From: Escherichia coli
GTDB lineage: Bacteria; Pseudomonadota; Gammaproteobacteria; Enterobacterales; Enterobacteriaceae
DNA: 64,000 nucleotides
Assembly (NCBI RefSeq): GCF_044324785.1
Contig: NZ_CP172127.1
Direction: 5' to 3' (one strand)
Shown: one piece after another, positions 17,601 to 23,600 of the stretch
Numbering within the stretch: the first letter of the stretch is position 1
Layout: the number at the start of each line of letters is the position of its first letter
Position numbers: made by a program

Positions 17601-20600
17601 GCCTGAGCTTCGATCACCGCGGCGTGCTATGGATCCAGACCGACGTGTCGTCATCAACCATCAATAGTAAAGATTACAAAGGCATGGGCAACAACCAGAT
17701 GGTGGCGACGATCCCCGGTACCAATGAGTTCCGCCGCTTCCTGACCGGCCCGCGCGGCTGCGAAATCACCGGCATCGCGTTCACTCCGGATAATCGGACG
17801 CTGTTTATTAACATCCAGCACCCTGGCGAGCCAAGCGAAGGGCTTAGCGATCCGCAGCATCCGACGGCAGTATCAAGCTGGCCTGACGGCGATAAGGCTG
17901 GTCGTCCGCGCTCCTCAACTGTCGTTATCGTAAAAGCCGACGGCGGCATAATCGGCACCTGATTCTGTTTATCCGTCATTAAAAACGCAGGCGCGGTTAG
18001 CCTGTGTTTTTATGGTAAAGTCCTGTCAGTCCGCGCGCTGGCTTCCTTCAACGCTTTGTCGTAATTTTTGTCAGTCTGCTCGTAGTCTGGAATGCCCGGA
18101 ATTCCTCAACGCTATGCCACTGTTCAGGCGCGGTGTGATGAGAGGGGCGTCGCTGGGTTATGCCTTTCCGGGCACGATTCTGGCGATTGGTTTTCTGACT
18201 CCCTAAATGACCGCTGGCTGTCGGAACTACTGGATTACAGGGGGTTACCTTTAATGTCTGTCGGTGTCCTGTTGGTGATTTGCTGTACGATGCGATTTCA
18301 GGCAATAGCCATCGGCGCACTTGATGTCCGGCTGGGACGTATACCAGAGTCACTGGAACAAGCCTCACGTCTGCTGGGAGAAAATGGTACAGGAACTTTT
18401 GTTCGGGTTCACTTTCCTGTGTTGCTCTGGTGAGCAGTGCCCTGCTGGTTTTCACTGATGCGATGAAAGAACTGCCAGTAACACTTCTTTATTCCGAATC
18501 GCTCTTCCGGACGATTAAGTATTGTTCATGGTGGCCGGAGAATGGTTTTCGAACCATAGATGAAGCCAGAAGTTGGTTAAGCAAGTTCACGCAATGGTAC
18601 AACCTGGAACACAAGCACAGCGGTATTAAGTATGTTACTCCGGATGAACGCCATCGCGGAATTGATGCACAAATACTGGAAGCCAGAAAAAAAGTTTATC
18701 GCGAAGCTCGCAAGCGTCATCCTGAGCGCTGGAGCAAACAGTTGCGTGACTGGGAACTCATTCAGGCAGTTTATCTGAATCCAGAAAAAGAAGCGACATA
18801 ACGTAATTTTATTACATCAGGCGACAACTACCTTGAAAAACGCCGGAAATAACTGACTCTTTACCCGCTGCCATGCAGTGGGCTTTTTTATATCCCCCCT
18901 TCACAAACTCTGCTCACTGGTTATACCGGTTCACCTTTCCGGCTTGTAACCGCATGCACTCTGGACTGCCAGTCAGCTCATGTATGTCTCTTCCTTAATT
19001 GTGTTCATGAACAGGTGACACCTTATCTCCTGACAGAATAAACAAATTTTATTAATTCTGCTCTTCGCCAGCCCACTGCTACCATCTGTCGCGACGGGGC
19101 ATGGCTGCCTGCATGGCATGCATTTGTTGTGTCTGTGCTGACTGAACACGATAAAATTTTCCGGTTAATGAAGATCGATATCATCGATCGATTCGATCGA
19201 AATTATTCTATTGAGAATATCTGTTACCCGCTTTTAAAATATTCAAAGTACTATTTGCAGCAACGGAACAATAGCGGAGGTAATTGAAATAAAAAGATTT
19301 TTGCTGTTTCAGTGGTAGCCGCAGCCTGTGTATTTGCAGCAAATGCAGGTGCTGAGGAAGGTAAAAGCGGTTTTTATCTGACCGGTAAAGCCGGTGCCTC
19401 TGTGATGTCACTTTCAGACCAGCGTTTCCTGTCAGGAGATGAGGAAGAAACGTCAAAGTATAAAGGCGGCGATGACCATGATACGGTATTCAGTGGTGGT
19501 ATCGCGGCTGGTTATGATTTTTATCCGCAGTTCAGTATTCCGGTTCGTACAGAACTGGAGTTTTACGCTCGTGGAAAAGCTGATTCGAAGTATAACGTAG
19601 ATAAAGACAGTTGGTCAGGTGGTTACTGGCGTGATGACCTGAAGAATGAGGTGTCAGTCAACACACTAATGCTGAATGCGTACTATGACTTCCGGAATGA
19701 CAGCGCATTCACACCATGGATATCTGCAGGGATTGGCTACGCCAGAATTCACCAGAAAACAACTGGTATCAGTACCTGGGATTATGAGTACGGAAGCAGT
19801 GGTCGCGAATCGTTGTCACGTTCAGGCTCTGCTGACAACTTCGCATGGAGCCTTGGCGCGGGTGTCCGCTATGACGTAACCCCGGACATCGCTCTGGACC
19901 TCAGCTATCGCTATCTTGATGCAGGTGACAGCAGTGTGAGTTACAAGGACGAGTGGGGCGATAAATATAAGTCAGAAGTTGATGTTAAAAGTCATGACAT
20001 CATGCTTGGTATGACTTATAACTTCTGACGACACTGCTCCTGAACGATAATTGCGTATATTCTGTAATTAAGATAATTGCATATCTTCTGCAATTAAACA
20101 GAAATACCCTGCAGTCTATTACTGCAGGGTTGTCTGTTATCTGTTTTACAGATAATTCTGATTTTTATTATCTTGTTCTCTTCATAATAATGTTGTCGAT
20201 ATACTCCGATGAATATCAGAAAACTGTTTTGTCCGGGAAACACCCCCCGGATTTTATTGTTTTTATTCTTTTTTGTTGTTTCTGTAATAACCACAATTGC
20301 ATGCGGATACACTGAGAAGAATGCCACCGGGAATGTGTTGCTGCTGTTCCTTCTTCTGCTCCTTGCACACAGAAATACCCTCACATCCATTACAGCGCTG
20401 TTATTTCTGTTCTGTTGTGCACTGTATGCGCCTGCCGGTATGACGTACGGTAAAATCAACAACAGTTTTATTGTCGCGTTGCTGCAGACCACAACTGATG
20501 AGGCAGCGGAGTTTACCGGGATGATTCCTGTTTATCATTTTCTGGTCAGTGCCGCGATTCAGGTATTCATGGTGATTTTCTGGCGAACACACCGCCGTGG

Positions 20601-23600
20601 TCACCGTAACTGGCTGGCACTGCTGCTGTTCGTATTATGCTCAGTAAACAGCTGGCCGTTGCGGATGGTTAAAGGAACTGTTGTGGGGACAACTGACACA
20701 TTGCGTGAAATGCAACATTATAAACAACTGAGTCAGCACGGGGCTGACAACTGGAAAATCCTGCCGGGAACACCGTTATATGACACAATTGTTATTGTCA
20801 CTGGTGAGAGTGTGCGCAGGGATTATATGTCGGTATATGGCTATCCCGTGCCAACCACGCCGTGGCTGAATACAGCTCCCGGTTTATTTATTGACGGCTA
20901 TACATCGGCAGCAGCCAGTACCGTACCTTCCCTGAGCCGGACACTGATTTATGACTATGAGCAGAACCCTGACTCCGGCAACAACGTGGTGGCGCTGGCA
21001 GCAAAAGCAGGATACAGCACATGGTGGATATCCAATCAGGGAAAGCTGGGGGAGCATGATACACGCATCTCTGTTATTGCTTCTGATGCGGAGCATACCG
21101 TTTTCCTCAAGAAAGGCAGCTTTGCTTCCCGTAAAACGGATGACATGTTGTTGTTACAGGAAACAGAACGTGCACTGGCGGATAAATCCTCTCCGAAGGT
21201 GATTTTTCTGCACATGATGGGGTCTCATCCGAACCCGTGTGACCGGCTTCACTCCTGGCCGAATCATTACCTGGAGCAGTATCCCCGAAAGGTTGCCTGT
21301 TACCTCGCCAGCATCAGTAAACTGGATAACTTTCTCTGTCAGCTTGATGGTATCCTTCGCCGGCATTCCCGTCATTTCGCCATGCTTTACTTTTCTGACC
21401 ATGGTCTGTCGGTCAGCGACAGTGCTAATCCTGTTCATCATGATGGCCATATACAAGGAGGCTACAGCGTTCCCCTGATTATTACCGCCAGTGACATCAC
21501 GTCTCATCAGTCCGTCAGCAGAAAAATCAGTGCCCGTCATTTCGCAGGTATTTTTCAGTGGCTGACCGGCATTCGTACTGAAAATATACCGCCATTCAAT
21601 CCGCTGACAGACGAAGATAATGAACCCATTATGGTTTTTAACGGAGACAAGAATGTACCGACAGACAGCCTTGAGTCACAGCCTCTGATTCTTCCGGGCA
21701 AGGGAAAATAAGCGTAATGTTCATCACCAGGTTATGTACGATGAGTTTTCCACTGTTTATAGCAATTATCTTGCTAATAACCAGACAGGAGTAACCAGAC
21801 CAACCGAAAACACCGGGGAGGTGATTACCCGCTGGCAGAGGAAATCCGGTTTTTTTTGATGTCAGCCATAACGTGTTTGACAATAAAGCATTATGAAAGG
21901 GTGTTAATGAGTCCATGGGATAATTCATAAAAATAATTTACTGTGTTGTCCTTTTCAAAAGAAATATTCAGAAGATAACCCCTGGCTGACAACCAGGGAA
22001 AGGGGACATTAACAGTATTATTATTGGTGGATAAATTATTACTTGTGTGCAGGATACACTAATGCAATATCTACTGATACTGTATGCCAGAATGTTTCCT
22101 GCCTGCTGCTGAAAACGGCAATATCCAGGGCCAGACATATTCACCATTCATATTTCTGCATTTCTGTACAATTTTCTCAGAAAGCGTCTCATCAATTCTT
22201 TCACGCAACTTCTCCTGCTGTCTTAAAATACTTTCGTATATTTCGAAATCATCTTCCTGCATCAGCATTTCGGCGCATTTAATGATTTCTGCCCGTTCAT
22301 GCAGCACAGAGGAATGGTTATAGAGCCAGTTTACAAACAGCAATGCTTCCGGATATTGTCCCCATAATGGTGAGTATGTTGTATAATAATCTTCGGCAGT
22401 ATCCGGCCCTGCAGAATAGTTATGCCATACAGCAAGAGGAAATGGATGCAGATTTCCGCACAGCATTTCCGCGATGTAAGTATTTGCCGCAAATCCGCGA
22501 CGAAATGCAGTTGCAGCTTTTACCAGTTCCCCATTAAGAAAATGCAGAAGACCAAGTTCATACCAGTAAGGTGAAAATTCATCAGCATGTTTTTTCAGTA
22601 CACTGAAGGCTCGCTCATGATCACCTGTTCGTAACAGTTCTGAACCCAACAACCAGCGGGCACCCTGATTATCTTCAGGATTGTATGCCAGTATTTTATC
22701 AGTAAGCATAACCGCATCCTGATGACGCTGTAAGTGCACATTTGCGAGAATTGCTGCATAAAGCGCGCGCAGATAAGGCCGGTTTTCGGGATGCATCCAG
22801 ATGATTTCACCACTGAAACTTTCCGGGATGAGACGATTACCGGCCGCCAGTCCTTTAAGCGCGGCGTTCAGAGCCTTACGCGGGGCATTCTGCTCCAGAA
22901 ATGCATATGCCAGATGAGCGTGTATATCAATAAAGTCAGGCTCCCGTTGAGCAAGATGCCTGAGTTTGTTGATGTAACTCGTCTCGCTGATTTCATCAGT
23001 GTCGTATGCATCAAGCACTTCTTCAAACTCCCCCAGTAATGGGCCAAACCAGGTATCCGGAAATACGAAATAACCCTTGTTATCGTGCACTTCAAAGCAT
23101 AATCTATCGTTCATTTTCTGAGCCTGTAAAACATGTGGTGATATAGTCTGAGAGCATAAAAGTTGAGATTCTGTGTATCAAGTCCTGTCTTGGCACCGAA
23201 TGAATATTGCTTACGAAGCCCCTTCATGCTTTCCTTGAGAACAATAATTTTATCTTTATGTGAATCTCATTTTTTATAATGATGTCAGATGATTGAAATG
23301 CTAAATTATATCTGAATCAACTTTTCCTTTGCTAAAGGTATCGAAATAACTGCAAGATTGTATTTTGTAATTGCCAATTTAAAAATGTCAATTTGTTTTT
23401 AATTATGTTTTTGTAATAAGTTTGAAGACACAAAAAAATAATATAATAACAAAAATCCTCCAGCCTTGTAGGCCAGAGGATAAAATACTTAATTGAGGAA
23501 AACATCAGGGAAAAGTATTTCTGACTTAACTTTCCCGGCTGGAGAGTGAATCAATGTAATCAGCGTACCATTGCATCATTTCACGGCGGCCATCGAGATA

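Follow-up and report, generated by a model that had tools for sequence, protein, structure and literature searches.

The integrase-proximal head of a selC island in Escherichia coli: a YjgX-type phosphoethanolamine transferase, a ShiA/SisB-type repeat protein and a Tia-type adhesin gene

A block of four genes, encoding an integrase, a ShiA- or SisA-type protein, a sulfatase-family protein and an adhesin of the Tia or Hes type, heads many genomic islands of E. coli and Shigella and has been described in the islands SHI-2, SE-PAI, LAA and GIselC17584/1. SE-PAI is listed with an integrase, a sulfatase, Tia and ShiA, while module I of LAA contains int, sisA, a YhbX fragment, a 1503-bp sulfatase gene (ORF4) and hes. 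In GIselC17584/1 (PMC6174562) the 1503-bp gene that concerns us here is listed at selC, and the pheU, pheV and selC islands analysed in that study carry YjgX or YhbX. A further study (PMC13340028) maps three products annotated by the Prokaryotic Genome Annotation Pipeline (PGAP), namely a tetratricopeptide repeat (TPR) protein, a phosphoethanolamine (PEtN) transferase and a beta-barrel protein, to SisA, the transferase and Hes, respectively.

Here we analyse the corresponding block in a 64,000-nucleotide stretch of Escherichia coli DNA (contig NZ_CP172127.1; hereafter the window), which matches the chromosome of ES1, an E. coli strain of ST38 (NZ_CP133856.1), at 100% identity. Since the int-shiA/sisA-sulfatase-tia/hes block had been described for SE-PAI, LAA module I and GIselC17584/1, what we report is an island head that is already known; its genes occur widely in E. 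coli and have RefSeq annotations, and the locus in itself alters little. We consider it highly probable that the block is the integrase-proximal head of a selC island, that it carries a ShiA/SisB-type gene, a YjgX-type PEtN transferase gene and a Tia-type adhesin gene, and that an acceptor other than lipid A is the likelier target of the transferase.

A preliminary description of this DNA had placed genes for a 500-aa and a 347-aa protein between an outer membrane protein (OMP) gene and an integrase gene, and this arrangement is confirmed. The two open reading frames (ORFs) span 20209-21711 (+ strand) and 22071-23114 (- strand), exactly the limits given before, and RefSeq annotates their products in NZ_CP133856.1 as 'phosphoethanolamine transferase' (WP_191654236.1) and 'tetratricopeptide repeat protein' (WP_001586152.1). 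They are flanked by the OMP gene (19312-20028, +) and a P4-type integrase gene (23526-24710, -), the latter abutting selC. The order is thus selC, P4-type int, the shiA/sisB-type TPR gene, a 3′ remnant of a yhbX-type gene, the yjgX-type PEtN transferase gene and the tia-type adhesin gene. Both ORFs are genes rather than chance reading frames: the 500-aa protein has Pfam matches (below), the homologues of each protein number in the hundreds, and the ratio of nonsynonymous to synonymous substitution rates (dN/dS) between alleles is about 0.2. At least 80% of the 6.2-kb block is covered in 96 of the 5426 complete E. coli genomes. The characterisation of the pair as low-GC cargo stands for the three intergenic spacers, which are clearly AT-rich (33.3%, 38.2% and 30.7% GC), whereas the coding regions depart only mildly from the 50.8% of the whole window (48.2% for the 500-aa gene and 44.8% for the 347-aa gene). 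Silencing by H-NS, to which the preliminary description likened these spacers, is a conjecture of which the sequence shows the AT-richness alone.

The YjgX-type transferase and its adhesin partner

The 500-aa protein matches the Pfam families Sulfatase (PF00884; E-value 7.6e-36, 124.4 bits against a cut-off of 25, aa 193-446) and EptA_B_N (PF08019; 2.3e-5, 24.7 bits against a cut-off of 22.3, aa 44-172). Its N-terminal membrane domain, at approximately aa 1-155, has about five hydrophobic segments (approximately residues 15-33, 43-61, 58-76, 106-124 and 136-154), and its periplasmic domain of the sulfatase/alkaline-phosphatase fold (aa 193-446) contains the predicted nucleophile, T238. These matches and the hydrophobic N-terminus bear out the earlier proposal of a sulfatase-family membrane PEtN transferase. 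In an alignment of 11 PEtN transferases, which included EptA, EptB, EptC, OpgE and YhbX of K-12, the gonococcal homologue and four members of the family, residues E200, T238, H340, D397 and H398 were invariant and H410 was aligned with a histidine of EptA; the catalytic set further includes H410/411. We take these to be the same metal ligands and nucleophile as in the structures of MCR-1 (E246, T285, H395, D465, H466 and H478), EptA and EptC. Every one of the active-site residues is kept in the sulfatase domain. On sequence evidence, then, the protein belongs among the membrane-bound PEtN transferases of the sulfatase/alkaline-phosphatase superfamily, and its catalytic set is intact. By analogy with the solved EptA, MCR-1 and EptC enzymes it would be anchored in the inner membrane, and Thr238 in the Zn-binding periplasmic domain would take PEtN from phosphatidylethanolamine and hand it to a periplasmic acceptor, more likely an envelope glycan or protein than the phosphates of lipid A.

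By tblastn the transferase is 89% identical to K-12 yjgX over aa 177-496 and 76% identical over aa 93-178. The K-12 gene (b4575) is a pseudogene in KpLE2, in the order leuX-intB-IS2-yjgX, and from this comparison the 500-aa protein is recognisable as an intact allele of YjgX, which survives in K-12 only in pseudogene form. Of the 5426 complete E. coli genomes, 2731 have a yjgX-type gene, which is close to full length in 1447 and occupies up to five places per genome. The dN/dS between intact E. coli alleles of the transferase is 0.20, indicating that the intact form is under purifying selection.

The OMP gene that precedes the transferase gene (Pfam OMP_b-brl, 74.7 bits) encodes, judging from its relatives, an adhesin of the Tia type. 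Such adhesins form part of the heat-resistant agglutinin (Hra) family, whose members are beta-barrel OMPs of about 245-250 aa, and the product has high identity to named members. Proteins called 'Tia invasion determinant' and 'adhesin/virulence factor Hek' share a 90% cluster with the O26:H11 allele. This allele and the intact one of ECCNB12-2 are 94% identical, and the ECCNB12-2 allele is 99% identical to the window copy. In Salmonella the homologue bears the name 'Heat resistant agglutinin 1'. On a Salmonella contig the OMP gene (54% identity) is followed by the transferase gene (58%) in the same order and orientation, on an otherwise different island, showing that the adhesin and transferase genes travel as a co-directional two-gene cassette. 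The co-divergence of the two genes as a pair in Salmonella appears to be a new observation.

In ES1 the adhesin gene itself is damaged. Alignment to ECCNB12-2 and O26 97-3250 (window 19289-19314) places a 1-bp deletion after 19290, by which the ancestral ATG loses its G, and the annotated ORF with a GTG start lacks the MKKVFAVS of the signal peptide. Since the signal-peptide start is missing, this strain probably fails to make or to export the adhesin.

The likely acceptor and competing explanations

The earlier label 'EptA-like' is not upheld. The transferase is 19% identical to EptA, 20% to EptB, 22% to EptC and 25% to YhbX, as opposed to 31% to OpgE and 30-32% to the gonococcal PptA orthologue. 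Both the identity matrix and a neighbour-joining tree, a distance tree without bootstrap in which clustering does not fix function, place it in a clade of its own beside OpgE and the Neisseria protein and far from the Ept enzymes. This clade comprises the E. coli selC copy and its homologues from Salmonella (58% identity), IncK/IncI-type plasmids (52%), Erwinia (50%), Pantoea (39%) and Acinetobacter (36%). The NCBIfam lipid A models point the same way, with 38.5-58.6 bits against cut-offs of 561-660 and, for the MCR models, 19-33 bits against 1225-1250; across the EptA, EptB and MCR models together the scores are 19-59 bits against cut-offs of 493-1250. CptA models gave 110.4 bits (cut-off 404) and 84.7 bits (cut-off 900), and the protein falls below the cut-off of all the curated NCBIfam families scored. 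One of the plasmid-borne homologues (52% identity), on the large conjugative IncFIB/IncK2/Z plasmid NZ_CP027370.1 (L004 5908-7443), lies between a DUF2569 gene and excA/traY in an IncI-type transfer region; a DUF2569 protein is likewise listed in GIselC17584/1 (PMC6174562).

The gonococcal match extends over 453 aa at 32% identity, membrane domain included (E-value 6e-62), and it is the sole match above threshold in one gonococcal chromosome. The matching ORF sits between two Mur-ligase genes, downstream of penA; as this is the position of pptA, which is NMB0415 in Neisseria, we take it as PptA from synteny and locus tag. PptA modifies serine residues in pilin and lipoproteins with PEtN or phosphocholine, and several envelope proteins are among its targets. 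OpgE (YbiP) transfers PEtN onto osmoregulated periplasmic glucans. Around opgE in K-12 (L008 1451-3598) the gene adjoins and is convergent with ompX, which encodes a small beta-barrel OMP; this loosely echoes the adjacency of tia and yjgX and may be a coincidence. Because the transferase groups with OpgE and PptA, lipid A does not seem the most likely acceptor: the enzyme probably does not modify lipid A, and a polymyxin or lipid A phenotype would be the less likely outcome. An assay of polymyxin resistance or lipid A may well be negative, and glucans, the core or O-antigen of lipopolysaccharide (LPS) and envelope proteins, among them the adjacent adhesin, are relevant too.

Several points weigh against our reading of the island head and its acceptor. 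An identity of 30% does not fix a substrate, the tree carries no support values, and the acceptor assignments for YjgX-type enzymes are all drawn from sequence; in Campylobacter a single enzyme, EptC, serves lipid A, glycans and a protein. The ShiA assignment, for its part, is based on cluster membership and statements in papers and not on alignment to AF141323. The yjgX-type gene decays often, about 1280 genomes having a partial copy only, and it is truncated in K-12. In O26:H11 97-3250 the transferase is annotated as frameshifted (L010 12993-14494) and tia is intact, which is the reverse of ES1, where the partner adhesin has lost its start codon. This reciprocal damage argues against a strict dependence between the partners, and the transferase homologues of Erwinia, Pantoea and the plasmids have no adjacent OMP gene.

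Were the enzyme instead an EptA/MCR-like transferase acting on lipid A (or the LPS core), it would lower the negative charge of the surface and raise resistance to polymyxin and cationic peptides. The shared superfamily and full catalytic set are compatible with such a role, the best match among solved structures by sequence is an LPS-core enzyme, E. coli EptC (8e-18), close homologues bear the label 'lipid A phosphoethanolamine transferase' in some databases, and the region travels with virulence-associated genes. However, those labels are automatic, the identities of 19-22% to EptA, EptB and EptC contrast with 30-32% to OpgE and PptA, and the NCBIfam models for EptA, EptB, CptA and MCR score 19-110 bits against cut-offs of 404-1250; we therefore regard a lipid A transferase as unlikely. 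The full-length identity of 32% to the PptA orthologue raises the alternative of a protein acceptor, the obvious candidate being the co-inherited Hra-family adhesin (Tia/Hes/Hek) or else another surface protein, in which case the modification would tune adhesion or antigenicity. PptA does modify several envelope proteins, and the adhesin-then-transferase pair is conserved and has co-diverged between E. coli and Salmonella, with the same pair in LAA. Yet the glucan enzyme OpgE is equally close, either partner can be lost alone, several homologues are without an adhesin neighbour and we found no report of PEtN on Hra proteins, and this specific version of the acceptor strikes us as quite improbable.

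We think it very improbable that the transferase and TPR genes are both decaying passenger DNA without a current function in this strain. The K-12 pseudogene, the frameshifted O26 copy, the many partial copies, the adjacent tia gene without a start codon, and the insertion sequences (IS) and gene fragments around the block would all fit with decay. On the other hand, both ORFs are full length here, the dN/dS is about 0.2, the catalytic residues are intact, and ShiA-family proteins from distant taxa have retained the same length and share about 60 near-invariant positions. We thus retain the reading of an island head with an intact PEtN transferase directed more probably at an acceptor other than lipid A.

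The ShiA/SisA/SisB-family protein and the yhbX-type remnant

The 347-aa protein, encoded by a 1,044-bp gene, has weak matches to the Pfam TPR and ANAPC3 families, and its AlphaFold2 model is an all-alpha solenoid with a predicted local distance difference test (pLDDT) score of 93.5. No signal peptide or transmembrane segment was found in it, the maximum hydropathy being 0.79. It falls into one 90% cluster with Shigella flexneri proteins and is 85% identical to the variant that follows the pheV and pheU integrases, which carries the UniProt name 'ShiA-like protein'. The 1,044-bp gene annotated by PGAP as 'tetratricopeptide repeat protein' has been equated with SisA (PMC13340028), and in the table of the LAA island sisA directly follows int. 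From these relationships the protein is assignable as a cytoplasmic TPR scaffold of the ShiA/SisA/SisB family. The preliminary view of a TPR-like helical-repeat protein is therefore supported by the TPR matches and the solenoid model, while its statement that the protein belongs to no recognised family is superseded by the cluster and the 85%-identical variant. Between islands the ShiA-type genes are 85% identical, as against 41% for the integrases.

The family is large and its members are found well beyond pathogens. At an E-value of at most 1e-30 it contains 205 representative clusters. A Tn3-family transposon in Morganella has homologues between its tnpA and resolvase genes, and Vitreoscilla-like bacteria have them in regions for conjugative transfer. 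Another homologue belongs to an integrative conjugative element, where its neighbours are FlhDC-like, TraI_2 and TraG genes; in Massilia a homologue adjoins a type I restriction-modification system. The occurrence of ShiA homologues on transposons and conjugative elements of non-pathogens suggests that their primary role may be intracellular and related to mobile elements. Single-protein scanning of 100,044 species genomes yielded 6 loci, of which the four distant homologues (31-37% identical) alone come from plausibly assigned genomes, and this number does not allow systematic statistics on gene neighbourhoods.

Several ShiA-family members match the Pfam family Tcf25 (PF04910), all below threshold. 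In P0419, which is a tandem duplication of the ShiA-like domain, the N-terminal half passes the Tcf25 threshold (51.7 bits). The 347-aa protein of the window has no Tcf25 match, and the ShiA family profile does not retrieve Rqc1 by sequence, so we treat an Rqc1/TCF25-like fold as a lead and not as demonstrated homology. Both this lead and the presence of the ShiA family on diverse mobile elements appear to be new. In another member, P0421, a ShiA-like domain is fused to a plasmid pRiA4b ORF-3-like domain. A role in anti-phage defence was considered and dropped: the transferase, the TPR protein and the OMP have no PADLOC match apart from a chance-level hit to DrmC (E-value 0.036), and in PHROGs the same three proteins match unnamed sulfatase families and, weakly in the case of the OMP, Lom, and nothing else.

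ShiA of SHI-2 at selC and SisA/SisB of the uropathogenic E. coli strain CFT073 have been described, from mutants of those other strains, as dampening host inflammation, and ShiA-type proteins have been treated as host-directed immunomodulators. In our analysis they look like cytoplasmic TPR scaffolds that environmental bacteria share on their mobile elements, and their mode of action thus becomes a question once more. The 5,485-bp hes-sisA deletion in LAA, published in 2026, on which roles in virulence, biofilm formation and adhesion are based (PMC13340028) also removed the PEtN transferase gene and part of atoS. As the transferase gene lies between hes and sisA, the phenotypes of this deletion are confounded. 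As a speculative possibility we put forward a joint picture in which ShiA/SisA would form a bacterial branch of the TCF25/Rqc1 fold and act as an intracellular backbone factor of mobile elements, with indirect anti-inflammatory effects, in which the tia-yjgX cassette would combine an adhesin with a transferase of the OpgE/PptA-like kind that modifies an envelope target other than lipid A, and in which the hes/sisA deletion phenotypes in LAA would be partly those of the transferase.

Between the transferase and TPR genes lies a frameshifted 3′ remnant (21716-21911, +) of a YhbX-type PEtN transferase gene, corresponding to approximately aa 488-554 of the 557-aa product. It starts directly after the stop codon of the transferase gene and was detected by tblastn at 49-54% identity (E-value about 1e-9). 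The DNA beyond the shiA stop codon is 77% identical over 332 bp to the pheV islands, where the YhbX-type gene is intact, and LAA ORF3 is the equivalent 'YhbX' fragment. The 3′ remnant, which marks the cassette junction and is shared by the window and LAA, indicates that an older yhbX-type gene was for the most part displaced by the tia-yjgX cassette, and its value as a marker of cassette replacement appears not to have been described before. The partial 'hypothetical protein' that PGAP places on the minus strand at 21701-21928 is probably spurious, an artefact of the remnant.

Another interpretation, in which two enzyme lineages fill one slot beside the TPR gene (the pheV and pheU islands combining a sisA-type gene with the YhbX-type 557-aa enzyme), was overturned by the 3′ remnant. 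In the pheV/pheU islands (L012-L017 8188-15044), five genes lie between the YhbX-type transferase gene and the Hra-family OMP gene, and they encode among others a WYL-domain protein, 359-aa and 523-aa proteins without a Pfam family and a CxxCxxCC protein. This stretch looks like an inserted module, possibly a defence system.

Island context and comparison with known systems

The integration site of the island is selC, the tRNA-Sec gene, which ARAGORN places at 25010-25104 (-). The 16-mer TTCGACTCCTGTGATC in its 3′ end (25018-25033) is the direct repeat reported for GIselC17584/1 (PMC6174562); it has no second copy in the window, from which we conclude that the distal end of the island lies outside. 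The 394-aa P4/CP4-type tyrosine integrase (Pfam Arm-DNA-bind_3, Phage_int_M and Phage_integrase) is merely 41-44% identical to the integrases at pheV/pheU and leuX (intB). Separating it from the shiA-type gene is the spacer with 30.7% GC (23115-23525), where consensus scans, which are pattern matches only, mark a strong integrase terminator hairpin with a T-run (23455-23481, -) and, ahead of the shiA-type gene, promoter-like sites such as the one at 23362-23391 (-). The spacer between the tia-type and yjgX-type genes (20029-20208, 33.3% GC) contains, likewise as pattern matches only, a hairpin with a 10-bp stem (20106-20130) and a promoter-like site before the transferase gene (20145-20174, +).

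Two other parts of the window stand apart from the block. In the first (15983-17962 and 18012-18801), a PhoX alkaline phosphatase gene has a markedly high GC content (56%, and 67% at third codon positions, GC3) and a twin-arginine translocation (Tat) signal. On its flanks lie remnants of IS3/IS66 and a truncated ABC permease that is joined to a fragment of an rve_3 transposase; this piece is a separate foreign part of the island mosaic. Between yicI and yicH, ES1 and ECCNB12-2 carry a cluster (about 29400-36350 in the window; L001 30403-37346) with genes for a BglG-type antiterminator, a fructose-type phosphotransferase system, two aldolases, a ROK kinase and a lyxose/mannose isomerase, which is absent from O26 97-3250.

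Among known systems, the 347-aa protein resembles ShiA of S. flexneri SHI-2 at selC and SisA/SisB of CFT073 in its 90% cluster, its 1,044-bp gene and its position as the first gene after the integrase. It differs in its host, an ST38 isolate from a rectal swab, and the anti-inflammatory phenotype is a feature of the published proteins. Older literature calls ShiA a 'putative quinone reductase', in contrast to the TPR solenoid predicted by the model here.

For the transferase, OpgE is the closest K-12 paralogue (31%) and has the same architecture and catalytic residues, but it belongs to a separate clade and is encoded by a core gene convergent with ompX, unlike the island-borne gene here. PptA is similar over 453 aa, membrane domain included (32%), but it comes from another genus and a dcw-cluster context, and the protein acceptor is PptA's own feature. 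EptA/PmrC, MCR-1 and EptC/CptA have the superfamily, fold, catalytic threonine, Zn ligands and histidine set in common with the transferase; they differ from it in identity (19-22%), and the curated NCBIfam cut-offs are missed widely. Lipid A is the acceptor of EptA/PmrC and MCR-1, and heptose-I phosphate that of EptC/CptA. The O-antigen PEtN transferase Lpt-O/Opt, which S. flexneri carries on plasmid pSFxv_2, was considered as closest relative and ruled out (BLASTP E-value 0.33): it too has a sulfatase-type domain and about 500 aa, but is unrelated by sequence and is labelled by PGAP as a lipoteichoic acid (LTA)-synthase-family protein.

The nearest counterparts are YjgX itself, the SE-PAI sulfatase, LAA ORF4 and the GIselC17584/1 transferase, which share with the gene described here the position on the strand opposite to a P4-type integrase and a neighbour of the Hra family; with LAA ORF4 the gene also shares its length of 1503 bp. 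The copy here is intact, unlike the truncated one of K-12, and is found at selC rather than at leuX or pheV.

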